DNA from: Neophaeotheca triangularis | Lineage: Eukaryota | Assembly (NCBI GenBank): GCA_054600435.1 | Contig: BAAIJX010000021.1 | Coordinates: 124,001-188,000 of the forward strand | Length of the DNA stretch: 64,000 bases | Reading direction: 5' to 3' | Shown: positions 28,419 to 54,606 of the stretch, piece after piece | Layout: every line of letters begins with the position of its first letter | Numbering within the stretch: the stretch's first letter is position 1 | Notes under the pieces: model-generated | The model's input: the letters and a program-made list of their open reading frames with translations, nothing else | Told to the model about the DNA's origin: nothing | The model's database searches: none | Position numbers and translations under genes: made by a program

Positions 28419-30689
28419 CTAGCCTCTCCTCTCCTCAGCAACGCCATTACCAACACCGAATCCCCTGACCCACTCTCCAATCTCAAACCCCAGTCTCCTC
28501 AGCACACTGCCATCGACACCGGTATCGCTATCAGTGTCTTTCGTCGCCGCTCTCTTGACGACGACGTTTTTTTCTTCCTCCAAAATCTCTACGCTCTGCT
28601 TGGTCCCCGTCTCACCGTTGTCTTTGAGGAAGATGGTCAAGTCCGGTCCTACTATGCCTCGCCATTGGGTGGCTGTCCATTGCCAATGGTCGGAAGGCGA
28701 GTAGGGGTCCTTGATGGGGATGAGGGTCGCGAAAGTGTTTGAGGCGTGGAGGGAGAAGTTTGGGATGATCACGACGCAGGGGTCAGAGAGCGGCGAGGTG
28801 GTGGAATTGGGACCAGACGGCGAGGGTGCTGCGTCGACGTCCATCTTATCGGTTGAGTGGCAACGGGTAGCGGTGGTGTTGTGGCTTGACATGTTGTTGG
28901 CGGAGACTTTGGGGGAAGAGGATGCATCGCTGTCGTCATAGTCTTCACTGATGTGGCGGTTCGCAGATTGAGGTGCGGCAGCAGTAGCACCTGACTGGAC
29001 GATGGGCTTGCATCCAGAGGCCAGAGCCTCTACAAGTTCAGCCTGCTTGTCAAGCCAATCAGCAGCAAGTCGATGATAGGTGGCCATGGCATTGTTACTC
29101 GAGACGTTTTGGGGCATGGCAGGTCCCTGATACTCCACGACCCCCTTTTGCTCTTCCTTGCTGAGTGTCTTGACCAACCACTTTGATAAAGCTTTGACAG
29201 CAACCGGGTTGTCGCCTTCGACAGCAATCAGTGGCCCGCGAGGTGTCTCTTTCCTAAGCGGGGCAGGGGGAGCGATGCGTCCGAGAACTTTGATTTTGTA
29301 GTTGAAGGCGATGCCAGCAATGATCTCTTCAATTGTCTTGCTGGAATTTCTGCTGGATGTATTGGGGGGCGCTGCGGTCGTGGGAGTCTGACTGGTAGCA
29401 GTAGGAGTCGAGTTCGTCTGCAGAGGGGGAAGTATCAAAGAACGATCGTGTGCCATATGACCTTGGCTGAGACGATGCTGTGAGTAGCCCATTCCGGGGC
29501 GTGGCGGCGTTGCCATGGGTCCTGGGGGGCTTACCACGCCCCTAAGGCCGGGCAAGCTCTCCCGACGAGATACTGCTGGTGGGTAAGGGTGCGGTGGTGG
29601 AGGCGCGCCAAATGGAAACGGTGTACCAGGGCCTCCAGGACTGCCCTGAGCCATCGCATGGGTGTACCGCTGTGGCATTGTGCGTTGCATAACTCCTTGG
29701 TGCTCGACGTTGAAACGACGACGCTTCAGATCGGGGCTCAAAGGACCTAGCTCGTCACGCTCGTCAACATGAGGGCTGTACATTGGCGACATGGCGTTGG
29801 CTGGAAACTGCCTGGTGCTGCGGGCTGCGGCAGGCGACTGGATGCTTAAATCTCGCAACACTGGCAGAGTACGGCTGACGGGGGTAATGCCTGCAGTGTG
29901 CGGCGTTCGAGGCTGCACGTTCGTGGGACTTGATCTGCTTGAATTGGCGGTAAAGGGAGTGCTGAGAGCGAGAAGACTCCTTCCTCCACACCTCGCGCAC
30001 TTTGGCTTCTCTCCGTTGGCAGTGATTGGGGAATCCGAAGTTACAGAGTTACGTCGACCGTTGCGCTTCGGTTGATAGCGGTAAGATGGGTACTGTTGCT
30101 GATGGCGAAGCTTTTCTTCTTCTGCAAGAGCCTTCCACTCGTTCTTGACCTCGGCCGACTGGTTGCGCCACTGCTCGCCAATGATCTTTGATATCTCGGG
30201 ATTGGCGAGACTAGGGTACTGCGCAACGACGCTGGCTTGGTGGTGTTGACGATATAGGATAAAGGCTGAGAAACAGATGTCAGTACATGATGTGTGACTA
30301 TAACGTGCTGTTCATGGGCGATGCTAGCAGTGGAGCTTACCGTTACGTGGCCTTGGTATCTTCGGATCAGGCTGGCAAATGCAGACTTGGGCGGTAGACT
30401 CTTCGCCGTCGCCTGTCCTGTGGGCGGGCGTTCCTATACTTTCGATCTCTTTGTCCTCGAGCGCGACAATACTGGCGTCCCTTTTCCTTGTTTGCGTGAA
30501 AGGTGGACTCTCTTCCGGGGTCAGGGGTGTTTTCGACCCGCGCGAGGGGCTTGGTGAGTGTTTATGGGAGCGCGAAGATGACTGGGTCGAGGACGTGCGT
30601 CTTGAGGAGCTGCGAAGGTTAGGTGCATTCGATTTGGGTGCCTGAGACTTGTTCAAGACAATCTGCTCGCCCGGATCCGTGTCTGGCAT
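28419..30689 (-). CDS. HMG-box transcription factor (Rox1/Rfg1-like, SOX-TCF type box)
   Basis: KIPRPRN|AFILYRQHHQASVVAQYPSLANPEISKIIGEQW...WKALAEEEKLRHQQQYPSYRYQPKR (intron 30340-30266), continuing in frame into the 499-aa ORF. Start codon uncertain (30689, or upstream at 30848). Confidence 0.9.
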
Positions 30690-34967: not shown

Positions 34968-35987
34968 TCAAGTTCCCTCTGTGACTTTGCCGTGACCCTC
35001 GAGGCCATTCCACCAGGCCATGGCGCCTAATACAAACAACACTACCATTGCATCGCTTACGATCGTGGTGAAGATGCTCGCATACCTGCCCACAAGTCGG
35101 ATGTAGCCAGCATATGGTTCAGGCACAAACCCGCTGTTGGCAACCATAGCAATCATCCCGTTTCCCTGCAACTGCCCACGCTCCAAGAAGAATCTTGAGC
35201 TCTGCAATACTAGCTGTACAGTCGCGAAAATGACAAACAGTCCCGGTCCTATCCCGTACCCTCCATCTTCGGTGAAGGCGGATTGCCTGCGCGCCAACTT
35301 GCTACCGTTGAAGGTCGATGAAAGGGCAACGTAGGTGGCGATCGAGACGGCGAAAACAGCGTGCACGATGCGCCACACGTATGCAGAGCCTGATGGTGCC
35401 TTTTGCTGCTGGCCTCCTCCCATCATACTCTGCAACATCTGCGGAATTTGCGGCATCTCGCCATTTGCGTTGTCGCCTGCCATGTTAGGCATCTGACCCA
35501 TGAGTTGCTGCATCATCTGCAACATTGGATCCTCCTCGCCGCCAGATGTCGTTCCGCCGCCCGGGGCTTGACCACGCTGCTGTTGCGCTTGCTGCGCCTG
35601 CATCTGCATCACGGCCTGTTGAAGAGGATTGTCGCTAGGGGTTTGCTTCGTGCTCGGTGTGCCAGGGCCTGAGGATCTTGAAGCTGGAGTGTAGGGATGC
35701 GAGGATATGTCGACTTCTTCAGGGTCATCGTCCACGGTTGCGGCCTTGGAGGCTGGTTCCGCAGCTGCAGGCAGTGTCAGTACCACGGTCACATCTGGAT
35801 CTTATCGTTGTACTTTTAACATACGTCCACCAAGCACTTCCGAAGGCGGCGCGACTCCTCCGTTTAATCCTTTGATTTTCGCAAGCCTGTCCTCCCCGGT
35901 TGCTGCTAGCTTCGCATTTCGCTTTTCTCTTCGTAGACGCGCCTGTCGCTGGGTTGATGTCTCCTCTTCTGGGGCAGTGTCGGCCAT
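34968..35987 (-). CDS. GET2: GET complex receptor subunit
   Basis: N-terminal RQARLRREKRNAKL...GEDRLAKIKG, an M/Q/G-rich linker and three C-terminal hydrophobic helices; intron 35824-35765. Confidence 0.85.
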
Positions 35988-37270: not shown

Positions 37271-38542
37271 TAGCAGTGAAATCACAAGTCAAGTGTCAGG
37301 ATTGCTGGTTAACTTTGCGATTTATGATGCTCTCAGAAACCGCGACAACTTTTTTAGACCTGAGCTTGTGTCCGTGGTCGGAAGCAAATACTGTCACAAT
37401 GTGGTGTAGAGCTCTCGGTTCTCGCCTGACACAAGACCTGAAGACGAGAGCCTGGCCAACAGCAAGCTTCGCGCGGCAAAGGGCTGTGGAGGGCCCAAAA
37501 GCAGGCACTTCCAGGTCACATCCCAGCAAACTCAGTGACCAGCATTTGCACTGAATATATCCTCCAGGAAGATGTTGCCTCTCCGGTATCCAAAGACTTG
37601 CTAGCTTTCTCAAATTCCTTCGACTCTTCAACAAAAGTATGTAGGCAGCTATGGTTTTTCCCTCCCATCACAGCCCAACGGGCATAGAGGAACGATTAGG
37701 AATATAGCGCCCAGCGAATGCACCACAACGGCCGAGTTCACGAAGAACTACAAGACCGCGTAAAGTGCACCGCATCTTGCTCTCAGATCTGTCGACCGGA
37801 AATCGGCTCCATAGGATATAGGTGCGGGAGACTCCTTGATAGTGCGTCGAACTGTCGCAGCTCTCAACCATTGACCTGCGAGGCAGGAATGGGAGAGCTG
37901 GACACAGATCTGTGTTTTGCAGGAGAGAGAAGGAAAAGTCGAGATCAGCTTTGAGGTTCGAAAGTTTTTGGGGTTGCTTCGGTCGCCAAGACTGATGCCA
38001 CGCTAGTCCTCATGGGGGCTGTCACCGCGGCATGACTGCTATAGGGTAGGATGCAGCCGACGCTAGCGAATGGATGTCTGTACCATTGACAGCTGCAGCC
38101 GACTTGGGTTCAAAACCCATTACTACCTAGGTAGTATAGTCGAATAAAAACACGCATATCAATGGCACGAGTATGTGTGCTCAATGTCTTCAGACTAGCC
38201 CGATTGCTCATTGATCGTGTCTCCGTCATGATGAAGTTGTACGGAATACAGTATATGCTTCTTGCTCTATTATTACAGGCCCTCTCCACCTTGCTTGACG
38301 TTCAGCCGAGGTCCGTTTAGCTCGACATATAATGTGTATCTACTTTTACTGCTGGGACATATATCGAGCTCTCGGCAATGTTGTTGTACAACAATCAACT
38401 ACATAATCCTTCCAATGCTCGTGTAGGCCAACTTACTCATCATATTGAACCACGAAACTTGTCATAGACCTCACGCGACAAGCGCTTCCCTTTGCAATCC
38501 GTTGCATGTGTGCTCCTGCCGGCCATCCGCATTGCTACCAGG

Positions 38543-40595
38543 ATGTCGCCTATCCAGCGTTTACTGGTCCTCAATAGGTAAGACACGCCACTTGAATCCT
38601 TGCATGCTTCCTCTGATATCCTACTAGGGGCGAGATTGCAGCTCGTATAATCTCTTCGGCTCGCGAGCTAGACATTGAGACAATTGCTGTCTACACCGAA
38701 AACGACATTGGACATATCTACAACGCCACTCACGCCGTCCGCCTGAGCTCGCCCGCGGCCTACTTGGATATTGACGAGGTTTTATCGGTTGCTCGAGCCA
38801 ACCGAATCGATGCCGTTCATCCAGGCTATGGCTTCCTTTCAGAATCTCCCGAGCTAGCTCAGAGGATGGATGAGATGGGTGTTAAGGTGGTCGGACCTGG
38901 CCGCGACGTTCTGAAGCGCACTGGCGACAAGCTAGAAGCTCGCCTACTGGCCGTCGAATGCAACGTTCCAGTTTTACCCGCATTGACAGAGCCCACCAGC
39001 AGGGTTGACTCCGTCAAGGTATTCGCAGAGAAGGTAGGCCTGCCGGTCATGGTGAAGGCTGTCGACGGTGGTGGAGGACGTGGCATTAGATTGATACGCA
39101 AGTTTGGAGACCTGCAGAGTTTCGTTACGAGAGCGATTGAAGAGAGTCCCACAAGGCAAGTCTTTGCCGAGAAGGCTGCGGTTGATGGCTTTCGCCATGT
39201 CGAGATTCAGATCGTCGGTGACGGCCACGGGAATGTGACGCATCTCTGGGAGAGGGAGTGTAGTATACAGAGGCGGTATCAGAAGGTGGTGGAGCTCGCG
39301 CCAAGTACTGTGAACGACCGCCATGCAATTGCTCCAGTGATCGAGGCAGCTGTAAGAATGGCGAAAAAGGTACGCTTGCCGCCCCCATTGCGACATGTAC
39401 TTCGACTGACTCGGCGTTGTAGATACAATATCGATCACTTGGGACGTTCGAATTCCTGCTCAATCCAGCATCCTCGGAACACTACTTCCTCGAAATCAAC
39501 CCGAGACTTCAAGTCGAACATACCATCACAGAGTCGATATGCGCCACAGACATCGTAGCGGCTCAGCTACGCATAGCTCAAGGAGCGACTCTCGCCGAGG
39601 CAGGCCTGGATGCGACCAACGATCCTGGTCGAGCACCCGATCAGAGGTCAATACAGCTGCGAATCACAGCCGAGGACCCGGAAAAGAACTGGTCGCTCAG
39701 CATAGGAAAAGTTCAAGGGTTTCACTTCCCTTCAGGGAACGGTGTACGAGTGGACACCGCACTGGTCCATGGAGCGCCTGCCATAGTCAGTGCCGACTTT
39801 GACAGTGTTATTGCCAAAGTCATCATTACTGCTAGTACGTGGCCGGGCGCAGTCGCTAAAGCCAAGAGAGCATTGGAAGACACTGTGATCACGGGCGTGA
39901 CGACGAACTTAGCGATGCTACGTGCCATCGTCGCTAATCCGAGTTTCCTGGCCGGAGAATGCGACACCCAGTGGCTGGAAGCCCAGCACGACCAGCTCTT
40001 GCGGCAGAGCCGAGCCATCGCTGCTTCCACCAAGAACCCTTTCCACGGTCTCGCATCGCTGCAATCGTCGACTCCCTCGAGCTCAACCGTCTCTACAGCT
40101 TCCACACTCTTCCGCAAGGACGATGCATGGTCACTGACCCTTTCACCCAAAGGGCAAGGCGACGATCAGGAGCAAGCACAACACCATCTCCTCCTGACGA
40201 AGGTTCTACGCAACGACTTCCCAACGTCGCTAGCAGCCGAGATACAGTTCACGTCGCCCAACTCACAACCAGTCCCATACACCGTGTCGATGCAAGCTAC
40301 AAACGCTTCCGCCTCGGCTCTAAGCTCACAGCACCGTCAAGGTTCTACTGGTGACCCGTCACACGTTGTCGTGCCATTTTCTGGCAAGCTGGTGGAGGTC
40401 CTCGTAGACGAGGGCGACAGAGTCAAGAAGGGCGACGTGGTTTGTGTCATTAAGCAGATGAAGATGGAGTTGGAGGTCAGAGCGCATAGAGGGGGAGTTT
40501 GCAGTTGGGTCATGGAGGTGGAGGATGGAGAGGACGTTGCGGAAGGCATTTTGGCTGCTGTGCTTGATGAGGAGAAGAGGGAGGCAAAGTTGTAG
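38543..40595 (+). CDS. Biotin carboxylase plus biotin carboxyl carrier (acyl-CoA carboxylase alpha-type subunit), C-terminal AKL
   Basis: LLVLNR|GEIA, HPGYGFLSES, KAVDGGGGRG, ERECSIQRRYQK, FLEINPRLQVEH, RITAED, KQMKME biotinyl-lysine motif. Introns 38578-38627 and 39370-39422. Confidence 0.93.
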
Positions 40596-42662
40596 GTTCA
40601 AAACGATTCAATTATCTATGGGAAAGTTCCCATGCGCAATTCAATTCTTCCATCACCCGGGCATCCATGCTGGAGCGGACCAAGCCAAATGCCTGACCAG
40701 CCGCGCTGCGTCTAACCACGCTCTTTCGCGTTGCGTGTGACCTCGCGCTACTGGTCCTGGTTGAACATGTAGTTGCCCACCCGATCCAGAATCTCGGCAC
40801 TATGCCTTTCCCCAGCAACTACCAGCCTCTGCCACGCCTGCAGGGGGATCCCCTCATTGTACGCCTGGGCGCGCGAGGTTCTGGACGTACTGGGCCGACC
40901 AGCTTCCTCATGGTTCCCGAACTTGGCGCAAGAAGTTGTTGTTGGTGACCAAGAGGTAGCCGGGCAAAGTTAGAAGGTGGTCCGGTGTGCCAGGGGCAAT
41001 GCTATCGCGGACGGTGGTGCCAGGCATTGGGCTTCTAGGGATGGCCGTGATGAAAATTCGGGAGCGCGTGGGTTGAGTGCCGAGCTCTCTAGAAGCTGGC
41101 TTGAAGATGCATCCGGGGTGACGGGCAAGAGAGCAGTGGCGACGGGGCTATCGATTGACGGAAAGCAGAAAAAGGCGAATGGTGAGAATGTAGTAAAATT
41201 CAGCTGGAGGAGGAAATGGGCATGGAAACTTGTCAGGCCCAGGCTAACGCTAAGCGGGCGATGAGAAAATCGTCACCAAGCCCGGCAGAAAGTTGGTGAA
41301 GTATGCCGATGATGCGTCCGGCCTGCTCTCGATTGAACAGGGCCGCGCCGATGCGATCGACTAAGTCCACCGGGAAGGAATCGCGAGAACGTACAAAAGC
41401 TTGCGTAGCGAGTCGTTGATAGTCTCTGTATTTGGATTGTATTCTACCCTAAGCCAGCCTCATGGGCCCATTCTCCACCGCATCGCCGTACTTATACGGT
41501 CGATGATGTCCGCAAGCGCGTCTTCTCCAGCAACAAGCAGGCGCTGCAAAGAGACACCCATGGCGGGGACAGCTTCTCCACGCCACACGTCTTGCTGCGC
41601 TTGTCCTGCAGGGCCAGGGAGTGCCGGGTCGGACATGTTGCCGCGTGCGCGAACTGCTTGAAGAATAGCACGATTCTGTTCGTGCGTGTACCCCTGGTAT
41701 AGAGGATCCAAGAGCGGGACGGTGTCTGCAGCAAGTTCGAGGCCTTGCTATGTAGTGGTGCCCGGCGAGGACCGCGGCGCAAGGGTTCCTCGATGGACGA
41801 CCGGGAGGAGAAGTCTTGTGCATTGGGCTCCAGATTTTATCCTGTGGAGGCTTACATTGAGGTCTACAGGGGCGTTGCCGGGATGGTCCTTGGAGTGTTT
41901 CTTACACTGCGGTGCACAGCAACGATACCAGCTGCCGCTTAAGTGACAAAGGTTCGGAGTGTCTGCTTGGACTTGTTAGATCGGCTCTGTGTTGATCTGT
42001 TGATCGAACTTTTCGTGAAGCATACGTGTGAACCCGAGAAGTGCTGGGTTGGATGAGGACGGGAGCCCGTATGCTGGCCATCAACGAAGCGCTGAAACAA
42101 TGAGTCCATGTTTTGCTGATGTGTGCAGTATCATAGTTACGGAGGGGCGAGAATGCTCGTGAGTGGTGCTGGCGTCGTCCGCTGACCTCAAGACATCATT
42201 CTTTAATACTTTAGAAAGAGCATGGTCTCTAGTGGCTGTATGGACGTTTCAGCAAAGCGCAACAGAGACAAGATATGTACACATAACAGCTTGCGTCCAG
42301 AGGATAGGGAACCTGAGAAAAAAAAATCCAGATTGTGCCTTTCTACGACAATGTTTGCCAAACGGACCATGGAATAAGGACGACCATTAGGGAGCTGGGA
42401 CTCCACCTGCCTGCTATAGTGTTCCGGCATTGTCTTGTTGTGAACTGTACATGCTCAATGAGGTGCGGTGGTACTCACGTCCTTTGACCCATTGAACCTC
42501 ATCCTAACGCCCTGTAGTGTTGTCACAATAAACCCTTCCGAATTAGCTTTGGACAAAGCCGGCTCGCTGCCCTACTGCAGAGTCTCTTCGTTGCACCTTT
42601 TGCAGAATAGCTGGAGAAGGTTCGGCTGGTGCCCAGCTGCATTCGCCGTAGGGTTGTTTCAT

Positions 42663-43440
42663 CTATCGCTCGAGGTTACTAGCTGCGAGTTGACGGACGA
42701 CTAGATCTTCTTCGCCAAGGCCCCTGCCTGCGGAAAGGTCCGTTGCTCCCGGAACTCCTTGGGTTGGTGGAAATTCCGGGGGAAAGGTTTGCTTGTAGGG
42801 AATACCAGGCTTCAAGTACAAGATCAGACGGAAAGCGGTGTTTCCGTTCAGATAGTAGCGGTACAGACGCTTTGTTCGAAGGAATCCGAGGTTCTCGTAT
42901 ATTCGTAGAGATGGTAGATTGTCTACCTCCGTCTCCAGGGCAATCTGAAAAGGAATTAGTAACTTGCAAAAAGGCTGGTTGGGAGAAAGAAAAATACTTC
43001 GTCTGCGTCTTTAGCTACCATAGCATCTACAGCCTTTTTAACCAGGACTGTGGCGATACCGCAGCCACGGTATTCCCCTTTGGTCGCCAACATGGCAATA
43101 TAGCCTCGCATGGGCCCTCCTCGATGCGGCTCAAGTTTGCAGACGATGACACCGATAAGCCTTTGATCGGGGTCTAGTGCCTGCACGAGGGATTAGAGTC
43201 ACATCATGTTGTTTTTCTATTGTGTTCAGAGCTTACCATGAAGCAAAGATCTCCCCATTGGTACAGGAAGTACCTGTAAACATAAATGCTGTAAGGTTCC
43301 GACAAGTCTTTGGAGATGAGCTCGCGGATGGCGGGCAAGTACGGGGACTCCTTTTCGTCGCCATAAGAGACGTAATGGAGACTGTCGGCCTTGTCGCGCA
43401 TTTCGTCGGAAACGGCATGGTTTGGCTTATCGTTGATCAT
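42663..43440 (-). CDS. MAK3: NatC N-terminal acetyltransferase catalytic subunit (Naa30)
   Basis: [26 protein letters not shown]...[17 protein letters not shown]...[22 protein letters not shown]. Introns 43236-43181 and 42997-42945. Confidence 0.95.
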
Positions 43441-43817
43441 CCTCGCTGTTGGAATATGTCGAATGGGGTCGGTTGACGCTGACAATCGATCACTCGCGCG
43501 GATGACACTTGAATGTTCCACAGCAGGTAGCGAGGGGCCGCATAGCTTTACACCATCAGAGAACTCGAGCTGTCGGGGCGCGAATTGACGTATCAGCGCA
43601 AAAGAGAGAGAGAGAGAGGGAGGTGAGGTCCGAATAGGCAAATAGGCATATCAAGAAGCTGCGGTTTCTTGCCAAGCCACGCGAGTCAGCGGATCAGACA
43701 TGCGACCACCCTTGATCTCGACAAGACGCGCTCTACTTAGTTACCTACTCTTGTTCGAAATAACGCATTACTCCCCCGCATCTCCTCAGAACGACTGTTG
43801 CTGTGCAGTCGCTCAGT

Positions 43818-45866
43818 ATGTCGACACTGAGGCGACGCATCTTTGGCTCGTCTGGTACGCCAGAGAGCACGCCAGACGTTTCGAGAGACGCAAGTCCTGC
43901 GCCGCCTGGCGCAGAGAACAGCGATGACTTTCGCCTCGTCTCCGCTAAGAAGCTCGAGCTACTGAGGGAGAAAGTGCACAATCAGAAGGTCAAGGGCAGG
44001 AAGAGGCGGAATGCTTGGATCTTCGGTCTCGGCGGGTTGTTTGGCGTGCTGATGGCTGGCTTTTTTGCGACACCCAACGATACCATGAACAATCTGGTGG
44101 AGATGGCGGGCTTGAACGATCTGAAGCTGGACAGTATTATGGATGTTCTACCCGCTGGTTTGATCCGGGATGTCCAAGAATTGCAGGTGAGTCGCGTTGC
44201 TTGGGCCAGCTCGTCTGACACCAAGCTGATGTTGACCGAGGTGTCGTTCGTAGAGTAGTGAGAAAGAAGCCGTCAACTACGATTCCTTTTCCGTCGGCCT
44301 ACATGCTCGGAGCCAGGGTGTGGCAGCGAAGCACCCAGTCATTATGATACCCGGCGTCATCTCCACCGGTTTGGAGAGCTGGGGCACTGAACCAGCCAGT
44401 AGACAGTACTTTCGCAAAAGGCTATGGGGTTCATGGAGCATGATGAGAGCACTAGTGCTTGATAAGGCAAGTTGGAAACGACACATTATGCTTGACAAGG
44501 ATACCGGACTCGACCCTCCCGGTATCAAGCTACGGGCTGCTCAAGGCTTCGACGCCGCCGACTTTTTTATCACTGGCTACTGGATCTGGAACAAGATCCT
44601 CGAGAACTTGGCCACCATTGGCTATGATCCTACCAATGCCTTCACTGCATCTTATGACTGGCGTATGAGTTATCTCAATTACGAAATCCGCGATCAATAC
44701 TTCACCCGCCTAAAGCACCATATCGAACTTGCCAACGAGATCCAGGGGCTCAAGGTCGTGCTTCTCAGCCACAGCATGGGTAGCCAAGTGTTGTACTATT
44801 TCTTCCACTGGGTCGAAGCCGAAGGTTACGGCAACGGCGGCCCGTCTTGGGTGAACGACCACATTGAATCCTGGATCAACATTTCGGGCTGCATGCTAGG
44901 AGCGCTCAAAGGCGTACCTGCAGTTCTCAGCGGTGAAATGAAAGACACTGCTCAGCTCAATGCTTTTGCTGTCTATGGTTTAGAGAAGTTTCTCAGCCGT
45001 AAAGAGCGCGCGGAGATCTTCCGCGCTATGCCGGGTATCAGTTCGATGCTGCCGATGGGCGGCGACGCCGTTTGGGGCAACAGGACATGGGCGCCTGATG
45101 ATCAACCCGGCCAGAACCAGAGCTTTGGCGAATTTATGCACTTCAAACAGGTCAACGGCTCGAGGACACCTGGTAATCTGACTGTGGAGGAGACCTTACC
45201 CTACCTCTTCTCCACCTCGGAAGAGTGGTACAAAGATGCCACCACGAGCTCCTATAGCTTTGGTGTCGCACACACTACGAAGGAGGTTGAAGACAATGGC
45301 TTGATCCCCGCCAAGTGGACCAACCCGCTCGAAACCCGTCTGCCTCTTGCCCCTGACATGAAAATTTACTGCTTCTACGGTATCGGCAAACCTACAGAAC
45401 GCGCCTACTACTATCGGGAAGACCTTGATCCAGCGAGCGGAACGAATGTCACCATTGATACCCGTGTCTCTTCGCCGGATGGCTCGATAGATCACGGAGT
45501 AGTCATGGGCGAGGGGGACGGCACCGTCAACTTACTGAGTAGCGGGTATATGTGCAACAAGGGATGGAACATGAAGCGGTACAATCCTGCGGGCATCAAG
45601 GTGGTACCCTTTGAGATGCCTCACGAACCTGACAACTTTAATCCACGAGGCGGTCCGAACACTGGTATGAATGTTCTATTTAGCAGTACCCATGCCCATT
45701 ACTGACGTAGCACGATGCAGGTGACCATGTTGATATCCTTGGGCGTAGCTCGCTTAACGATTTGATATTGAGAGTGGCTGGCGGCAAGGGCGATCTAATC
45801 GAACCTACGATTTTCAGCAACATCAAGGAGTATGCGGAGAAAGTAAAGATCTACGAGGAGGAATAG
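43818..45866 (+). CDS. LRO1: Phospholipid:diacylglycerol acyltransferase
   Basis: HPVIMIPGVISTGLESW, YFRKRLWGS, YDWR, SHSMG lipase motif, GEGDGTV, DHVDILGRS. Introns 44187-44253 and 45665-45720. Confidence 0.96.
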
Positions 45867-48449
45867 TCGTCTTGCGCGATGGCGAGTTTTGGCGGGTGCT
45901 TGGGGCTTAGCCCATGCATTAAGAGATGCCTAGGAATGCGGAACGGCCTATGATACCACAAAGTGCGTACGCCCGAACAGTCTGACTCGGGGCTGACATC
46001 CCAAGTGGCTGCGACAGCTACACTTCGGCCTCCTCAGAGTCTTGCAAAGGCCTTGAGGATCAAGAGGGAATTACAGCACCTTCTTTCATATACGAGCAGA
46101 ACCTGCCTTCTCTCTGGAGGCCTATGCCCGTCTGGGAGCTGTTGGCTTTGGCATCATGCTTTCTACTTAGAGAAATGACTTGACGTGCCCATGGTCGCTC
46201 AAAAGGCTCCAGAGCGGACGGCGACACGTTTCTGGACCTTTCCGGTGCATACTGTCCGTCCTTAAAGACAGCATTTAAACAGGTACATCTATAAATCTCT
46301 CCGCTCATTCTCTTCAGCAAGCTTTGACCTTTCCTACTTCATACTACTTTTTTCAAAACTTCACCTCCCGTCGCGAGCTTCGGCCCATCGATTTTCCGGA
46401 GCATGTCCCCTCGTTTCAAGATCACACCTTACTACTACGCCTTTGGTGCGCCGAGGTCCATACCAGCATTCCATGAGTATACGAATCTCCGTCTTCGGAA
46501 CTGCAACACACATACCAGTCAGTATACACGGCAGTGTCTACCGGTATGCTTTCATCAGTGTTCTTTCGCCTTTCCGTACCACATCAGATTCGGCCGATAC
46601 TGACAGTCAGCAATAACAGACTTGCTTCCTAACAGGTTCTTTCCTCTCTTGGCTACAGTCCCAGCACTGGTAGGTTCTGATCGACGTTTTGTCGGAAGAC
46701 AGGTAGGCTGACCATTTCGACAAGTCGCAGCAGGATCAAAAGGAGCGGTCACAGCTATGTCGGAAATACGAGGGATGATTTCGAGAGTTCTTGGGCGACT
46801 GCAGGTGAGTCTACCCAGCAGCAGCATCCTACCACAAGAACTTCTACTGACAAATGACATAGACCCGCACTTCGCCGCTTGAATAAGCCTCAGACCCGTC
46901 CACTAGGCTTCATGCTCAGCTGGACGGTTCCTCCGCCCCTCCCTTGAATACCGCGCAAAGCCCGCCAGAGGTACGACTTTGCTACAACATCAAATTACCG
47001 AAGACACCCTAACATCAAAAGGCCCCTCAACAGGCTCCTCATGCAGCTTGAAACCAGGCACTTCTTTCTCGGGCTATCAACCCTGACATTGCACCATCCC
47101 CAGCCCCAACTTCCGCCCTGAGGCCGCCATCTCGCTTCCACACATTCCTCCAACGAGCTCCCCAACTCCTCCCTTGCAACATGGATTGCCCCTGTTCATG
47201 GTCAAGAACGTAGCATGGCGGAGGAAATGCTAGCTCGCGGACCACGCACGCCTTCTCCTGAACCAGTGTTGTTAGGGGGCACAGACTACGACGGGCTTCT
47301 TCCCCCGGACGATGATAGCGAGCACCATCGGCGGTACCTGCGCCGAGGCTGATGCGCAAGGTGCCAGTCAAGACATGGGAGAGTCACACATGGGAGAGTC
47401 ATATGACATATTACATGACATAAGCAAAAGCACGTGCACACATGCACTTAGCAAGCTTGCCTGTAGATAGCTTAAGAGAAACACATTTTTATGACACTTC
47501 GATATCAGGGGCCATTGTGCTGAGGGGAAGCTTTGTCTAGCAGCCAGGCTTGGAGGGGTACGAGCAGGAGGAACAAAGGGCTATACAGGTCGAGGAGCCG
47601 CCGCTTGTTGGGGAAGAGCCGCCGATGATGGTCGGGGACCGTAGGATGGTGTCGGAGCCTGCGTGGTAGAGTAAGGGTGGCGTTCATAAGGACGAAGAGG
47701 CTCGAGACGAGCATGGTCTCGCTTTGCGACGCGTTTCATTCTATCGACCGATCTGATGTGGCTTTGGAGTTGGGCGTTAGGGGGGTCTTCATAGTCGCGC
47801 TATGGCTGGTTTCGATATTCGCGTTCCTATGACATCGTCCGATTAGGACATATTCGTTCACCGTCAGCCGAAATGCGTGCTCACTATAGCAATGCTTGAA
47901 AAGACTAGACGAGCGTCACCCCTTGTTGTTTTCTCCTTCTCGATGTATGTTCTCTTGCAAGAGGCTGCTTCTGGCTGTCTCTGGAAAACTCTCATCGCTG
48001 TCTTTGTCCGGGGGCAGAGACGACGGCGTATCTAGCCAATTCGAATTCCATTGATTCTAGAACGTTGATTGTCTTGCTTTTCGTTTTACAAGAGTTCTGC
48101 AGGTGTATAAAACTCCCCCCTTCTCCGTGCATTCTTCAAAGCATCTATCGATCACCGTCATGCTTCGCCTCTACTTCATGCTTCTTCTTATACTTCACCT
48201 GCCCTTGGCGCTAGCCCCGGCCCGTTGTTTTTCCGCTATGATCCCTTTTCTATAGCAACTACTCAGGCAGGAAAGCCTGCTACCTCCTCCCTCACACAAG
48301 ACAACAAGCTTTTGGCCACTCCCACAGACAGAGCAAGAGCTTTACCCACACCGCATTATAACACCAACGATTGCTGTAAATATCTGGCATGCACCTACAC
48401 TCACAAGACTAGAGAGAGACACTCATTGCTGACCACCTCACAGCCTTCC

Positions 48450-49369
48450 ATGCCTGAATTCCGCCAAAGGCTCCGGAGGCTCCTTGGTCGCCGCAGAGTA
48501 AGTGCAATAGTTATACCCCTTAGGACTACTGGATAAGACTGACCTCGACAGGAACGAGCTGCTTCGGCAGCACCACCATCTCCACCGGATTGGGCCTCCA
48601 CAACTGTCGTTGCAGAGAGGGAAGAAGTCACAGGCTCGTCACCATCTCCGTCTCGGGGTATCGAAGAGCATCAGCAAGAGCCGGTTGTAAGGGTTTTCGT
48701 TCCTCGTCACAACGGGCTGCCTCTAACAATCCTCCCTGGAAGACACTCGCACCCTTCACGCCCTTGCCAGGGCTGCAAGGTCTCCGACTCGAGGAAGCAA
48801 ACTGGGGCCTCCCAAACGAGATCGCACCCTTTCCACCTCCTCGGTCAACAACCCGCACACCGCCCTTGTCGGCCACCAGCACGGTTCCAGGGTCTCCTAT
48901 AGTGGGGCTGTCATTTTCTCCGTCGGGCCGGGGGATCATCACGTACGGAAACCAACCACAAGAACCCCCGGCTGGGCTAGCAGAAGCTATGCTCGCACGA
49001 GGTCCGCTCGCGCCAGCTCCTGGGCCTCCTGCCACTGGCGAGGCAGATGTCGAAACGGGTGCACGCCTCCCCCCAGTCGATGGTGGCGCTGACCAGTAAC
49101 GAGCCCTGCGGTGGGCACAATTTTACTTCGGAATGGGAGTCCGAATGCTTACCGACGGTGGGTTTCAAGCTGAGACGGATACCCTTACGGGTCCGCTGCG
49201 GCTTCAGCACGGGCCTGGGTTCGACCAGCAGGTCACCAGGGCTATCATGGATGAGGAGCCGCCGCTTGAAGGAGAGGAGCCGCCGATGGTACCAGGAGAC
49301 CGGCGGTTGGTACTGGACCCAAACTGGGAAGAGGGAGAAAGGTTGGGGGACGGGGTAGGATGGCAATAG
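48450..49369 (+). CDS. Orphan Pro-rich multi-exon protein (model uncertain)
   Basis: MPEFRQRLRRLLGRRR followed by a canonical GTAAGT...CTGAC...CAG intron, then open Pro-rich frames. The terminal ORF 49133-49369 has a paralogous segment at 47541-47669. Confidence 0.4.
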
Positions 49370-49504
49370 CGTGGTTTCGGGGTTTGGCGCACAGGGTTTG
49401 GGGTGTTGGGTTTGGTCTAAGAAGGAAATGGAGGGGTACAGTGTTTGGTATGTGTATGCATGCAGTGATGAGAGAAGTAGCAGCTTTACATGCCCGGCAG
49501 TACT

Positions 49505-50305
49505 TTACAACTTCGCTTTATCAGCCACCAACTCCGGATCCAGCTCACTGGTGCAGAGGATGCAAGTGTCCCTGAGCGCAGGCATCCTGTCCCTGTGATT
49601 CACCTCCTGGTAGTCTTCACTCGCCAACATGTCCACAAAATGCCTAATACTTGGGTAATGGGCCAAAGCGACCTCGTCCCATCCACTCTTGTCCTCACCC
49701 TCGGTGTTTTGGTCAGGGACCACCTTGCCAACGACCTTGGCATTACCGCCGCGCCTGGAACCGATATTCTTCGCAAAGGCTTGACCGTAGCGTTTGTAGG
49801 AGTCGTGTGCTTCCTGCGTCGGCTTGAAGGCGAGCAGATTGAGCATGCTGACAGCGCCATTCTGACCAAGCTTGAACGTCTTTGACCACTCTAGCAGTTC
49901 GCCGTTCAGCTCCAGGCCTTGCGTCGACCCGGCCATTCTGGGTTTGTCCATTGAGCCAGTCAGCTCTGGCACGTCGCCTGGAGATGGGTGCAGGAATTTC
50001 TTGTTGCGTTCTTCAAAGCCATTAAAGACGCTCTTGGGCACACCGGCTGTGATGCTCCAGTGCTTTGCTACCCAGTCTTTGCTGGTGTATGCCTCAGGTA
50101 GCTGGGTGGTGGTAGGCAGGATGATGAGCAGATCCCACTTGGTGTCTAGCAGGGGCGAGGTGGACAGCTTCTCGGGCTTGATGATCCAGCGTATGGCCCG
50201 CGAGACGACGAGCGGCTTGACAGGCACGGAGGAGAGAGCACGGAGGTAGGCTGGGATGTTGGCGTTGGGGGCGAGGGAGACTAGATGGAGCGTTGCGAGA
50301 GGCAT
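49505..50305 (-). CDS. DUF1330-like dimeric alpha/beta-barrel protein, C-terminal AKL
   Basis: MLNLLAFK...Y.RYG.AF...GG.AKVVGKV...WDEVALAHYPSIRHFVDMLASEDYQ...R..AL.DT. Likely start MPLATLHL at 50305; ends DKAKL*. Confidence 0.8.
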   Translation of the reverse strand: MPLATLHLVSLAPNANIPAYLRALSSVPVKPLVVSRAIRWIIKPEKLSTSPLLDTKWDLLIILPTTTQLPEAYTSKDWVAKHWSITAGVPKSVFNGFEERNKKFLHPSPGDVPELTGSMDKPRMAGSTQGLELNGELLEWSKTFKLGQNGAVSMLNLLAFKPTQEAHDSYKRYGQAFAKNIGSRRGGNAKVVGKVVPDQNTEGEDKSGWDEVALAHYPSIRHFVDMLASEDYQEVNHRDRMPALRDTCILCTSELDPELVADKAKL

Positions 50306-50602
50306 GTCGGCTCGTTGTCTTGGTAGAGTGACTATTGACGGAGAGGGTGGGAGGCGACTGTTATCGAGGAGATGATAACCTACCGGAGCAGACACTACAT
50401 CCCTTTGAATATAAATGTAACCTTCCTTTTCCGAGGAAGTGATTACATGGCTAGGGTCCGGATGTGGAGTTGAGGTGTCGTCGTCCACTCTGCTTCTCCG
50501 CGAGCTCAATCTGCCTCGGTATTGGGGGAATCTTATCTTATCAGACAAAGACACATACCCGACTCGTACCTATGAGCTTTCCAATGAGTATACTCTACTA
50601 AT

Positions 50603-52402
50603 CTATGCAAACACTGGCTGTAGCTTTCCAGTCATGCGATGAACGAGCCTCTCAGGCATATCGACCTCGTACACGTGCTTCGCCCACTGTGCCGCCAGCT
50701 CCCTCGTCCTGGCTGGGTCAATGATTTCCTCTGCTCCGAAGGCATTCGCTGTCCGCACTGGATTCATCAGGCGGCGGTACTCTTCGTCAAGCTGGCGATA
50801 TCTCTCCTTCTTTGCCTCCACTCCCTGCTCCTTTTCAATCTTCTTCAACTCCGCCGCGTGGCCCACCTCTATCCCACCGTCCAGCGGCAGTGACCCCCAC
50901 TCCCCCGATGGCCATTCGACTCGAATGCGGGGGTCGCGCGAGTCGAGCATTACGCCGCCTGCAACACCATATACCCTCCGAGTCACTACGCTGAACAATG
51001 GAATAGTAGTGGTGTAGTAGGTCTTCATAAGCTCAATCCCCCATCGCATTGTCGCTGTCCGCTCTGCAACAGTCCCTACAGCGTAACCAGGAACATCCAC
51101 AAACTGTAACAGAGGGATATTGAAGATTTCGCAGAACTTGAGATGCCGGGTCAACTTTTGTGAGCCTGCTGCGTCTAGGGCACCTGCGCCGACTTCGCAG
51201 TTGTTGCTCGCGATGCCGACTGGTCTTCCGCCTAGGCGAGCCAGGCCACAAATCACCGTGCGACCCCACAAAGCACCGATCTCGAAGAAAGATCCCTGAT
51301 CTACGACCGTGGTAACGATACGTCGTGGATCATACATGCGTTCTCGCTTGCGTGGAATGATAGAACGAAGTTCGGGGCTCAGTCGGTCTAAAGGGTCCTC
51401 TGCGGCGACTGTTGGGGGAGCAGCAGTTCCGCAATTCGGAAGGTAAGAAAGCACCGTCCGGATCTGCTCAAAGCATTCGGCCTCGTTCGCAGCCAGGTTG
51501 TCAATGGTTCCATTAGTGCAGTGCATCGAGGGCCCACCGAGGTCCGTCAAACTCAGCCCTTCCTCAAACGTTGCTCCAGCAACGACCTTGGGTCCAGCAT
51601 TGAACAATGCGCCAACGTCCCCAGCCATGACGGAGAAGTGGCAAGCTACGACTCTGGCAGCGCCCAAGCCAATGGCCGGGCCGAGCACAGCGCCGAGGTT
51701 GGGGATCCCCATGTTGAGCTGCTTCACAACGTGCTCGACAGATGATAAAGGCGGAATGTAAGAGAAGCCGGTGGTTCTGATTGTGGTTACGGAGCCACCG
51801 CCAGAAGAACCATCGACCAACTTGATCATGGGCAGCTTCAATGCAACGCTCAGCTTCTCCATGTAGATGGTCTTTTCCTGCAGCGCTCCGTCGGCGTGGC
51901 CAGCCCGTATACTGAAATCATCAGCCGTGAAGACGACTTGTCTGCCTCTCAAGTTACCGAAGCCTTGAACGTTGTTGCTGGGAATAAATGCCTCTGGCTC
52001 CTCTCTGATGCCACCGAGCTGTTTCCATTTGACAGTGCCGCTCACGCTCCCTACTTCGCGGAAAGAGCCTGGGTCTAGTAGTTGATCGACTCGTTCGCGT
52101 ACCCATAGTTTCCCAGCTTGCTTCTGTCGAATGTAACCTGTCTTTGAGGTGTCGGGGGTTTTGGCCATGGTCCTGAGAGCCTTGAGCTGGCCTAGGACGT
52201 CGGAATAGTCCGCTGGCAATCCATCCTCGTTGCCTTTACGTCTCCTGCGACGACCAGAGTTTGCGTCTGCGGGTGCATCCCCATTGAGATGCCCGGAAAG
52301 TTGAGCTGCCCTTGACGCGGCCTTTTCGGACTGTTGTTGTGATGGATCACCAGCGACCTGCCCGCCAGAGGCAGGAGAGTTATCAGACTTCTTGTCTGCC
52401 AT
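50603..52402 (-). CDS. Acyl-CoA carboxylase carboxyltransferase (beta-type) subunit
   Basis: RQKQAGKLWVRERVDQLLDPGSF, ADDFSIRAG, GP..GLGAARV, LFNAGP, LGGPSMHCTNG, GLARLGGRPVG, FVDVPG, EEIIDPARTR. Confidence 0.93.
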   Translation of the reverse strand: MADKKSDNSPASGGQVAGDPSQQQSEKAASRAAQLSGHLNGDAPADANSGRRRRRKGNEDGLPADYSDVLGQLKALRTMAKTPDTSKTGYIRQKQAGKLWVRERVDQLLDPGSFREVGSVSGTVKWKQLGGIREEPEAFIPSNNVQGFGNLRGRQVVFTADDFSIRAGHADGALQEKTIYMEKLSVALKLPMIKLVDGSSGGGSVTTIRTTGFSYIPPLSSVEHVVKQLNMGIPNLGAVLGPAIGLGAARVVACHFSVMAGDVGALFNAGPKVVAGATFEEGLSLTDLGGPSMHCTNGTIDNLAANEAECFEQIRTVLSYLPNCGTAAPPTVAAEDPLDRLSPELRSIIPRKRERMYDPRRIVTTVVDQGSFFEIGALWGRTVICGLARLGGRPVGIASNNCEVGAGALDAAGSQKLTRHLKFCEIFNIPLLQFVDVPGYAVGTVAERTATMRWGIELMKTYYTTTIPLFSVVTRRVYGVAGGVMLDSRDPRIRVEWPSGEWGSLPLDGGIEVGHAAELKKIEKEQGVEAKKERYRQLDEEYRRLMNPVRTANAFGAEEIIDPARTRELAAQWAKHVYEVDMPERLVHRMTGKLQPVFA

Positions 52403-52873
52403 GATTACTAGTATTGCTTCAAAGGCCCAAGAGCGCACCTACGAAGTATTTTTGGATGACTGCTACATGTTCGAGAAATGGTGATGGACCGAGATAGATG
52501 TAATTAATAATGATTGCACTGTATCGCCTTGCGCGTCGAGGGGGAGTCGCCCTTTCGAACCGAGGTCAACGGGCTGCTGAGCCTCTCTCTGGAGCTCCCT
52601 CTCTAAAGTACCTAAGTGAGCTAAGGTGGTTTAAAAGGCCCGCGCACGTGTGCGTACGTGTCAGCACGGCTGTGCTGCAATCTACCGCAGCAGCTCCCGT
52701 CCCCCGTCCCACCGTCCTTGCTGCAAACCTTTACCGTCGCTGGCTGATGAGCGATGAGTCGGAACTCAGCGAGAGTACTAGTACTAGTAGTAGTACCTTA
52801 CCTTGTTATTAAAGCGGCCTTATACTTGTCCTTACTTTCCAACAGTTTTCGAGTTCAATAATTCACAGTCATC

Positions 52874-54606
52874 ATGTCGACCGTTCACTTGCTCGACTAT
52901 GCGGCGGGCAACATTCGCTCTCTGGTCAACGCCGTTGAGAAGCTGGGTTACCATGTCGAATGGATCACTTCGCCCGACGATGTAGCAAAGGCAGAGGTAG
53001 GGGCCTGTTCGCCACGATATACTTTCGAATTAAGACTGATGGCTGACAGGTAGGTTCCATAATGTAGAAAATCATCTTGCCTGGTGTTGGCCACTTCGGT
53101 CACTGCCTCACCCAGTTTGCGAATGCCGGCTATGTTGAGCCCGTCAAAGCCTACATCAAATCTGGCAAGCCTTTTATGGGGATTTGTGTCGGTATCCAAG
53201 CGCTTTTCGAAGGCTCCGTTGAGAACTCAGCTGTCCCTGGTCTTGGGGTTGTCAAAGGCCAATTGCAACGATTTCGAGACGACGACAAAAGCGTGCCACA
53301 CATTGGATGGAATTCTGCCACGACTTGGACCATGTCGGGAGATGGTGGTGCGGTGAGTGTCTACGGACTTAGACCAGACAGCAAGTACTACTACGTCCAT
53401 TCGTACGCGATGCCCTACAAGCCGGGTCTATTGGAAGAGGACGGGTGGACGGTGGCGACTGCAAAGTACGGCACAGAAGAGTTCGTAGGCGCGATAGCCA
53501 AGGACAATGTCCTAGCCACTCAGTTCCACCCCGAGAAGAGCGGAGTTGCGGGTCTAAGAGTGCTCAAGGCTTTCCTCTCCGGCCAGAAGAGCGAACAGAT
53601 ACCCGCAGCCTTTGGCGATCTGAAAGCCATGCAAGGATTGACTCGTCGTATTATCGCCTGCCTCGACGTGCGGTCAAATGACCAAGGCGATCTGGTAGTG
53701 ACGAAAGGCGACCAATACGACGTTCGCGAGAAGAATGAAGGCAACGATGTACGGAATCTCGGCAAGCCAGTGGAAAAGGCCCAGCAGTACTACCAGCAGG
53801 GCGCAGATGAAGTTACTTTCCTGAACATCACTAGTTTCCGCGATACACCTCTCAAGGATCTGCCAATGCTCGAAGTCCTACGCCAGACAGCTGCGACGAC
53901 TTTCGTTCCCCTGACCATCGGCGGTGGTATTCGGGACACCCATGACCCAGCTACGAATCGCACCGTTCCCGCGCTTGAAGTGGCCACACTGTACTTCAAA
54001 TCAGGCGCCGACAAGGTATCGATTGGCTCAGATGCAGTAACAGCAGCAGAAGAATATTACGCTGCAGGGCGCAAACTTAGCGGGAAAACAGCCATCGAGA
54101 CCATCAGCGAGGCGTACGGCGCACAAGCAGTCGTTGTTTCTGTGGACCCAAAACGCATCTACGTTGCATCGCCAGATGCAACATCCCACGCCACAATCAA
54201 AACCAGCACACGCGGACCGAACGGGGAGGAATACTGCTGGTACGCCTGTACCTCTCAAGGCGGACGTCAGACGCGCGATCTTGACGCTGTTCAGCTCGTC
54301 CAGGCGGTGGAGGCTATGGGCTGTGGCGAAATCTTGCTCAACTGCATCGACAAGGACGGCTCTAGCAGCGGCTTTGACCACGAACTTATTGCGAGCGTCA
54401 AAGCTGCTGTCAAGATTCCCGTCATTGCAAGTTCGGGCGCAGGCAATGCAGACCACTTTGCAGACGTCTTTGAAAAGACCACCGTCGATGCTGCTCTCGG
54501 TGCCGGCATGTTCCACAGGGGCGAATGGACAGTCAAGCAGGTCAAGGAAGAGCTTACGAAGAAGGGCTTGCTTGTTCGCAAGTTTGAGGAGGAGGAGGCT
54601 TTATAG
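52874..54606 (+). CDS. HIS7: Imidazole glycerol phosphate synthase (HisH-HisF fusion)
   Basis: [61 protein letters not shown]; intron 52997-53067. Confidence 0.97.

Follow-up and report, generated by a model that had tools for sequence, protein, structure and literature searches.

Biotin-dependent carboxylases are placed in the cytosol, in mitochondria and in plastids. In its accessible part, a 2022 review of fungal peroxisomes mentions only the cytosolic acetyl-CoA carboxylase (ACC), and the accessible part of a 2026 peroxisome proximity-labelling proteome of Histoplasma (PMC13343957) names no endogenous biotin proteins other than pyruvate carboxylase and methylcrotonyl-CoA carboxylase (MCC). 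No description of a peroxisomal biotin-dependent carboxylase was found in the full-text literature, with subscription journals and supplements lying outside this search. Here we describe a stretch of DNA from the black-yeast-like fungus Neophaeotheca triangularis (Dothideomycetes; 64,000 nucleotides of contig BAAIJX010000021.1, hereafter the window) that probably encodes both subunits of a heteromeric biotin-dependent acyl-CoA carboxylase imported into peroxisomes. Peroxisomes, for which no biotin enzyme seems to be on record, would thereby contain one. The two subunit genes and a third gene with a candidate peroxisome-targeting signal (PTS) are listed below with their motifs. A preliminary description of this DNA had given the coordinates of the three genes and their motifs (AKL, RAAQLSGHL and AKL), and our gene models show all of these to be correct.

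38543..40595, plus strand: alpha subunit gene, a biotin carboxylase (BC) joined to a biotin carboxyl carrier protein (BCCP), 649 aa; spliced model, Pfam matches and database protein P0241
38543-38577, 38628-39369 and 39423-40595, plus strand: the three exons of the BC-BCCP gene
38578-38627 and 39370-39422, plus strand: the introns of the BC-BCCP gene, GT..AG
40461..40463, plus strand: codon of Lys606, the lysine of the QMKME motif to which biotin is expected to be attached, from sequence
40584..40592, plus strand: C-terminal AKL of BC-BCCP, a predicted PTS of type 1 (PTS1), from sequence and conservation in relatives
50603..52402, minus strand: beta subunit gene, a carboxyltransferase (CT), single exon, 599 aa; Pfam, PDB matches and RNA contigs
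52286..52312, minus strand: nonapeptide RAAQLSGHL, CT residues 31-39, resembling a PTS of type 2 (PTS2), from sequence and family motif
50948..50971, minus strand: YGVAGGVM, CT residues 478-485, from the HMMER alignment to PDB chains; Gly483 occupies the PccB specificity position
49505..50305, minus strand: DUF1330-like gene, a tandem ferredoxin-like/Dabb repeat of 266 aa ending in DKAKL
49508-49516, minus strand: AKL of the DUF1330-like protein, a predicted PTS1, from sequence

The BC-BCCP product starts with MSPIQRLLVLNRGEIA and ends with EEKREAKL. Over exon 3, the product is 100% identical to a database protein (P0241) that its source names as from Neophaeotheca triangularis and that is also 649 aa long. 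Pfam assigns Biotin_carb_N, CPSase_L_D2, Biotin_carb_C and Biotin_lipoyl domains (1.5e-11 for the last). The glycine loop G159-G164, K231, E283/N285/R287/Q289/E291 and R339, which we take to be the catalytic motifs, are invariant in 35 aligned relatives, as are Q604, M605, K606, M607 and E608, with Lys606 presumably the biotinyl-lysine of the MKM motif. We read this protein as a biotin carboxylase with intact catalytic motifs followed by a BCCP with the MKM lysine. Its BC domain is nearest to those of pyruvate carboxylases (550 bits with NCBIfam PRK12999 and 145.8 bits with PDB 9vmh), the best match to a PDB chain other than a pyruvate carboxylase being 5h80 at 134.5 bits. Of the 1147 profile positions of PRK12999, only 4-467 are matched, and the score stays below the cut-off of 965 bits, so the name 'pyruvate carboxylase' given by the sources is wrong; a pyruvate-type transferase domain is missing, and TIGR01235 likewise scores 482 bits against a cut-off of 1114. 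The linker strands right before the BCCP align with residues 1023-1075 of the pyruvate carboxylase 4qsl (E 9.1e-9). Overall, BC-BCCP looks like a pyruvate carboxylase minus its transferase domain, which is the layout of the alpha subunits of propionyl-CoA carboxylase (PCC) and MCC.

We then compared the CT with known carboxyltransferases. Pfam Carboxyl_trans (PF01039) matches it at 1.2e-82, over residues 93-569 and profile positions 2-470 of 493, and 45 PDB chains match at E <= 1e-10. The gene is predicted to encode a full-length carboxyltransferase with two crotonase-like halves. Its bit scores against PDB chains include the following (GCC, geranyl-CoA carboxylase).

PDB 7w5u, ACC-type beta: 223.6 bits
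PDB 9j0c, acyl-CoA carboxylase beta: 216.5 bits
PDB 5inf, carboxyl transferase: 213.3 bits
PDB 7ybu, human PCC beta: 206.2 bits
PDB 1xnv, PccB: 202 bits
PDB 5fif, 'Carboxylase': 180.5 bits
PDB 3u9r, MCC beta: 143.9 bits
PDB 4rcn, long-chain acyl-CoA carboxylase: 131.2 bits
PDB 5ikl, GCC beta: 127.6 bits
PDB 8j4z, human MCC beta: 124.1 bits

Since the ACC/PCC-type scores (202-224 bits) exceed those of MCC and GCC chains (124-144 bits), the CT is assigned to the PccB/AccB type, the alpha-carboxylating ACC/PCC kind and not the MCC/GCC kind, as judged from the rank of bit scores in place of a tree. The same order is seen in the C-terminal half, where 3u9r, 5ikl and 8j4z reach 81.6, 69.3 and 67.4 bits and the higher-ranked ACC/PCC-type chains 132-143.5 bits. 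In the HMMER alignment, YGVAGGVM of the CT corresponds to YGGAYDVM of human PCC beta, so that GG stands opposite YD. The PccB entries 3mfm and 3ibb differ within the aligned motif only in the Asp column, which we take to be the specificity residue D422. Residues G479, V480, A481 and G482 of the CT are invariant, Gly482 replacing the Tyr that precedes the Asp of PCC, and at residue 483, 36 of the 42 aligned sequences have G and 6 have S; the ACC-type chain 7w5u has Ile at the specificity position. Given a pocket with Gly-Gly or Gly-Ser in place of the Tyr-Asp of PCC, the substrate is probably something other than plain propionyl-CoA. The two small residues may accommodate an acyl group larger than propionyl, that is, a C4 or longer acyl-CoA. 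An assignment as propionyl-CoA carboxylase proper was considered and rejected, the database label being unsupported with Gly/Ser in place of the specificity Asp. The sole PDB chain that matches a 56-aa stretch around the pocket motif is 5fif (E 3.6e-6). An N-terminal extension of about 65-90 aa has no PDB alignment; matches begin at query residue 54-97, and the one with 5fif reaches closest to the N-terminus (residue 54). Fungal database records are widely mis-named, the alpha protein as 'pyruvate carboxylase' and the beta protein as 'Propionyl-CoA carboxylase beta chain, mitochondrial', and neither name passes the tests above.

In four other genomes of Dothideomycetes, the locus tag of the CT gene is next to that of the BC-BCCP gene.

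Plenodomus lindquistii: CT/BC tags NX059_011314 and 011315, consecutive
Neocucurbitaria cava: CT/BC tags N0V83_000561 and 000562, consecutive
Neocucurbitaria sp. VM-36: CT/BC tags 084670 and 084680, consecutive
Elasticomyces elasticus: CT/BC tags LTR66_004920 and 004921, consecutive

A metagenome scan with the CT returned five loci (L001-L005). On L002, the BC and CT genes stand head-to-head and divergent, their starts about 0.9 kb apart, and the CT on L005 is a remote one, of 30% identity, whose surroundings gave no match to BC or to the DUF1330-like protein. In Recurvomyces mirabilis, the BC gene has tag 9495, the DUF1330-like gene 9498 and the CT gene 9502. Judged by this adjacency, CT and BC-BCCP very probably belong to one enzyme as its two subunits. 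The system occurs widely in Dothideomycetes, among them many plant pathogens and rock-inhabiting black fungi, and is also found in Leotiomycetes. On L003, a contig of a more distant fungus, the CT gene (365-2206, minus strand) is preceded by a divergent Zn2Cys6 regulator and followed by short-chain dehydrogenase and thioesterase-like genes; its flanks also hold a kinase, and none of the flanking genes ends in a PTS1.

The two carboxylase subunits carry different candidate import signals. In the window, an end of the form [SAC][KR][LM] is found in 3 of the 167 stop-to-stop open reading frames (ORFs; at least 100 aa, six frames), namely BC-BCCP, the DUF1330-like gene and one out-of-frame ORF within the BC gene. 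Conservation was counted in the best 120 database relatives of each of the three proteins. Among those of BC-BCCP, 118 end in [ASNTP][KR]L (AKL 71, ARL 30, SKL 8, NRL 6, TRL 2, PKL 1) and 109 in the strict form [SAC][KR]L; the other two seem truncated, one being named 'partial' and the other stopping within the biotin motif. A PTS1-like tripeptide also ends 118/120 relatives of the DUF1330-like protein (ARL 47, AKL 43, SKL 11 and others), with the strict [SAC][KR][LM] in 107/120. By their conserved C-terminal tripeptide, AKL in both, BC-BCCP and the DUF1330-like protein are predicted PTS1 cargoes. None of the 120 CT relatives ends in a PTS1. The motif R[LAVI]xQ[VLI]xx[HQ][LIVM] is present within the first 70 aa of 119/120 of them, the single miss lacking its N-terminus, and does not occur once beyond position 100 in 58,867 residues. 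It begins at a median residue of 25 (range 13-39) in an otherwise freely varying N-terminal stretch, and position 5 is hydrophobic and position 8 is H or Q in all 119. These counts indicate purifying selection on the targeting motifs.

As for mitochondrial import, the NRGEI motif that opens the BC domain lies at residue 10-20 in 50 of 51 full-length BC-BCCP relatives, too early for a presequence to fit in front of it. In the N-terminus of the CT, a median of 4 acidic residues precede the nonapeptide. Both carboxylase subunits appear free of signs of mitochondrial targeting. A K/R run of at least three residues (RRRRRK in the window, 52229-52255, minus strand, CT residues ~50-58) follows the PTS2-like motif in 118/120 CT relatives, and after it comes a conserved LPADYSD, at a median of 21 residues past the nonapeptide. 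The polybasic run might extend the import signal, serve in docking or act as a signal of the nuclear type.

The core of what the preliminary description had put forward, a peroxisomal two-subunit biotin carboxylase, is thus well supported by gene linkage, which recurs as consecutive tags in four genomes and head-to-head on L002, by targeting signals kept on both subunits (118/120 for the alpha PTS1 and 119/120 for the PTS2-like family motif of the CT), and by the lack of mitochondrial signs. Its analogy with the bacterial geranyl-CoA carboxylase AtuC/AtuF fell away, because the CT scores 203-224 bits against ACC/PCC beta chains and far less, 127.6 bits, against GCC beta.

From the sequence we infer peroxisomal localisation, and likewise subunit pairing, reaction direction, substrate and regulation. 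In the mechanism we propose, the alpha subunit, with BC, a PT/BT-like linker and BCCP in this order, would be biotinylated on Lys606 and enter the peroxisome through Pex5 via its C-terminal AKL. The beta subunit would be imported through Pex7, with the N-terminal nonapeptide R-x-x-Q-[LVI]-x-x-H-L as its signal, or be carried in by alpha (piggy-back). Once both are in the peroxisome, BC would carboxylate biotin from ATP and bicarbonate, and the CT would transfer this carboxyl group to an acyl-CoA from peroxisomal beta-oxidation, at its alpha-carbon, giving malonyl-CoA or an alkylmalonyl-CoA.

We then investigated the upstream regions and transcription of the genes. Far/Ctf1-type boxes are found ahead of all three.

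38306..38311, unstranded: CCGAGG, 237 bp upstream of the BC-BCCP ATG
52560..52565, unstranded: CCGAGG, 158 bp upstream of the CT ATG
50431-50436, unstranded: CCGAGG, 126 bp upstream of the DUF1330-like ATG
50514-50519, unstranded: CCTCGG, 209 bp upstream of the DUF1330-like ATG

According to the accessible part of one study (PMC5068947), the CCTCGG box is bound by Ctf1/FarA/FarB, regulators of fatty-acid catabolism. The box also occurs about 120 bp (L001) and about 200 bp (L003) upstream of the CT start and in the spacer between BC and CT on L002. We take these boxes as a hint, suggesting fatty-acid induction of the three genes. RNA contigs of at least 99% identity come from libraries labelled marine metagenome (runs X1-X4 of two studies). 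They cover the CT gene at 50575-51189, 50805-51033 and 51734-51917 and the DUF1330-like gene at 49452-50035 and 50044-50306; both genes are transcribed. The BC-BCCP gene is uncovered by the contigs of all four runs, a gap that is no evidence of silence, and such contigs are unable to rank expression. In one contig (record 5, run X1), 17 unaligned T stand ahead of 50575 on the plus strand, giving an apparent end of the CT mRNA.

50575, minus strand: apparent poly(A) site of the CT mRNA, 28 nt past the stop codon

Since the CT mRNA ends here, the CT and DUF1330-like genes are separate transcripts, and both boxes of the DUF1330-like gene sit in the 270-bp spacer that follows this site. Contigs at least 99% identical to genes of this fungus lie within 38300-52700, which implies that this species or a very near strain is transcriptionally active in the sampled environments.

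Several observations weigh against a peroxisomal carboxylase of two subunits. All relatives in the best-120 sets are close (at least 58% identity) and mostly from one fungal class, and the counts among them are not independent events. No Pfam family, and hence no Pfam BT domain, matches linker residues 450-580 of BC-BCCP. In the window, the two carboxylase genes lie 10 kb apart, tail-to-tail, and are separated by housekeeping genes. BC and CT are on different contigs in Oleoguttula mirabilis and Vermiconidia calcicola, and on L003 neither a BC nor a DUF1330-like gene is present in the 3.6 kb upstream or the 10 kb downstream of the CT. The chance of a Far-type box in all three 250-bp upstream stretches, 0.003, comes from a naive model, and the motif is common (44 in 64 kb, in 15% of 250-bp windows). 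No way in which fungal peroxisomes would use alkylmalonyl-CoA is known to us. The PTS2 reading is weakest in its partial fit to the stringent pattern, given in the accessible part of PMC7710942 as [RK][LVI]x5[HQ][LAF] with a hydrophobic position 5, within the first 40 residues. This pattern is present in 48/120 CT relatives and absent from 72/120, the latter having Ala at position 2 or I/V/M at position 9, and RAAQLSGHL itself deviates by Ala at position 2.

These misfits, and a conserved polybasic run (118/120) that could serve another purpose, would suit a real alpha/beta carboxylase that is mainly cytosolic or dually located, its terminal motifs being weak or conditional signals. Biotinylation is moreover expected in the cytosol. 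We nevertheless regard this as unlikely, since both signals are kept while the residues around them vary freely, with CT positions 5 and 8 constrained in 119/119 and the strict [SAC][KR]L end in 109/120 alpha relatives, and since, if there were no import, it would be difficult to account for an enzyme with a different import signal on each of its two subunits. Still less likely, in our view, is that BC-BCCP and CT are not partners at all, the alpha protein being a truncated relative of pyruvate carboxylase that serves another transferase and the CT being a lone decarboxylase or transcarboxylase component. The 10-kb separation and the pyruvate carboxylase-like BC domain (PRK12999 550 bits, 9vmh 145.8 bits), with the source name to match, would fit such a case, as would the best NCBIfam match of the CT, mmdA (methylmalonyl-CoA decarboxylase alpha), although its 244 bits fall far under the cut-off of 998.8. 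Against it stand the adjacency of CT and BC in four genomes and on L002, the partial, below-cut-off PRK12999 match of a protein without a pyruvate-type transferase domain, and the order of BC, linker and BCCP within 649 aa, as in PCC and MCC alpha subunits. An ordinary mitochondrial propionyl-CoA carboxylase, as the database names of CT relatives and the 206 bits with human PCCB would have it, is highly improbable: the alpha subunit lacks a presequence, the CT N-terminus is acidic and carries the PTS2-like motif, the specificity Asp is Gly/Ser, and bacterial ACC-type chains score as high or higher. To our knowledge, these fungi are not expected to use methylmalonyl-CoA by a B12-dependent route. 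Import of both carboxylase subunits into peroxisomes is the explanation we favour.

The DUF1330-like gene lies downstream of the CT gene on the same strand, after a gap of 297 bp. Pfam DUF1330 (PF07045) is the sole Pfam match of its product (E 0.0075, residues 167-240), and because its 17.1 bits fall under the cut-off of 23, 'DUF1330-like', the label already used in the preliminary description, is the right wording; NCBIfam gives no family. A predicted model (pLDDT 90.8, from a 40-sequence alignment) has two ferredoxin-like domains of the dimeric alpha/beta-barrel kind. The C-terminal domain resembles the bacterial DUF1330 structure 3dca/3hhl (Foldseek E 3.6e-5, TM 0.73 on the target), and the C-terminal half has VIA Z scores of 11.5 with 3dca/3hhl, 9.5 with 3lo3 and 8.9 with 2fiu. 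For the whole protein, the Z scores are 12.1 with 2pgc, 11.4 with 3f44 and 11.2 with 3mcs, which are proteins of unknown function or 'putative monooxygenases', so that the fold matches of the model appear to point to no function. A chlorite-dismutase/DyP-like reading of the fold was rejected, with a whole-protein TM of about 0.4, an rmsd of 8-10 A and an identity of about 10%. The ESM Atlas returned only own-family or generic neighbours, among which a bacterial 262-aa cluster at 0.86 is a lead only. Scans of prokaryote genomes with the DUF1330-like and CT alignments gave no confirmed relative, the patterns probably being too specific for the scans to be informative on bacteria. Among the 10 papers listed as mentioning DUF1330, none has it in the title or abstract.

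The DUF1330-like family is small, with 376 clusters at E <= 0.001 among 1.84 billion representatives. An end of the form [SAC][KRH][LM] is found in 27 of 78 representatives of 235-320 aa, mostly the closer ones. The clade with PTS1 includes members from Alternaria, Botryosphaeria, Elsinoe, Eremomyces, Chrysothrix, Bathelium and Trichodelitschia, and further ones from Xylaria, Penicillium psychrofluorescens, Zalerion maritima and Mycothermus thermophilus. Fungal paralogues of 27-40% identity (P0409, P0427, P0433, P0446, P0447, P0457, P0477, P0485, P0489 and P0490; for example from Coniosporium apollinis, a Fusarium and Stictis) lack the PTS1 and stop right past a conserved ILC.TE motif. From these distant paralogues, it follows that a non-peroxisomal sister family exists.

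A partnership of the DUF1330-like protein with the carboxylase is suggested by the shared PTS1, by closeness to the CT in a few genomes and by the upstream motif. The chances are about even that the gene stands outside the system, encoding simply one more peroxisomal protein, or a cytosolic protein whose tail is fortuitous, and lies beside the CT by an accident of lineage. Such an outsider would account for a family wider than the known reach of the carboxylase (the last four taxa of the PTS1 clade named above), for the paralogues without PTS1, for the gene's own transcript and for a fold that gives no function. It would also account for the gene's absence beside the CT on L003 and in the 0.5 kb past the CT on L001, and for its place nine tags from the CT in Oleoguttula mirabilis. 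Its neighbourhood elsewhere and its promoter speak for membership: it is the immediate neighbour of the CT in the window and, with tags 021096 and 021097, in Vermiconidia calcicola, is flanked by BC and CT in Recurvomyces mirabilis, and has two Far-type boxes within 270 bp. The PTS1 in 118/120 relatives points the same way, and the longest contig is given as 5,255 bp for CT relative P0078 and for DUF1330-like relative P0218 alike, which is only a proxy for the two lying on one short contig. That the protein is a peroxisomal enzyme of the same pathway, for example one acting on the carboxylated product, is a possibility we hold tentatively. More doubtful is the full scheme, in which the three genes would form an as yet undescribed Pezizomycotina peroxisomal pathway from beta-oxidation acyl-CoA (C3+) to alkylmalonyl-CoA, with the DUF1330-like protein processing the product as an epimerase, a decarboxylase or an accessory subunit.

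The other genes around the carboxylase genes are listed below.

42663-43650, minus strand: spliced gene with introns 42945-42997 and 43180-43235, confirmed by an RNA contig
43764-45705, plus strand: LCAT/PDAT-type acyltransferase
53068-54606, plus strand: His_biosynth and GATase fusion of the imidazole-glycerol-phosphate-synthase type
28419-30311, minus strand: HMG-box protein
34968-35801, minus strand: GET2

The product of the spliced gene is presumably an N-acetyltransferase; Pfam gives no family on its separate exons, nor on the 15 ORFs between the carboxylase genes. Between the two carboxylase genes lie this spliced gene, the acyltransferase gene and unassigned sequence. The acyltransferase, the fusion, the HMG-box protein and GET2 are ordinary housekeeping neighbours, and nothing around the carboxylase genes points to a secondary-metabolite cluster.

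If the enzyme is peroxisomal, ATP-driven carboxylation would take place in this organelle, which would need bicarbonate and the import of a holo-biotin protein and would contain malonyl-CoA or alkylmalonyl-CoA. This would bear on how fungi handle odd- and branched-chain acyl-CoAs and on the origin of polyketide precursors. Should the three-gene pathway hold as well, it would offer a B12-independent disposal of odd- and branched-chain residues, or malonyl-type extender units made within the organelle, and would give DUF1330 its first function.

Among known systems, the PccB/AccB-type carboxylases (1xnv, 7w5u, 7ybu) share with the fungal proteins an alpha subunit of BC, linker and BCCP and a beta subunit with a double crotonase-fold CT, the latter scoring 202-224 bits over nearly the whole domain. 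The fungal CT differs from them in its extra N-terminal extension with the PTS2-like motif and the polybasic run, and the fungal alpha subunit in its PTS1, the predicted compartment being the peroxisome; compared with human PCC, the fungal pocket motif is YGVAG[GS]xM instead of YGGAYDVM. The entries 5fif and 5h80, named 'Carboxylase' and which we take to be a single-chain carboxylase of Deinococcus radiodurans related to long-chain acyl-CoA carboxylase, provide the closest match to the fungal pocket stretch (5fif) and the best BC match outside pyruvate carboxylases (5h80). However, these and the long-chain acyl-CoA carboxylase 4rcn are single polypeptides with lower scores, whereas the fungus has two genes, and the 5fif pocket reads YGLGAQAM, unlike that of the fungal CT. 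MCC and GCC (AtuC/AtuF) are alike in enzyme class and subunit plan, but their CT is clearly more distant (124-144 bits). Pyruvate carboxylase has the BC domain and the strands before the BCCP nearest to those of the fungal alpha subunit, which at 649 aa is without the pyruvate-type transferase and has an acyl-CoA CT as gene partner. The bacterial DUF1330 proteins RPA0582 (3dca/3hhl), Atu0297 (2fiu) and 3lo3 share the fold of the C-terminal half of the fungal DUF1330-like protein, which differs from them as a fused tandem with a predicted PTS1 and a match below the Pfam cut-off.

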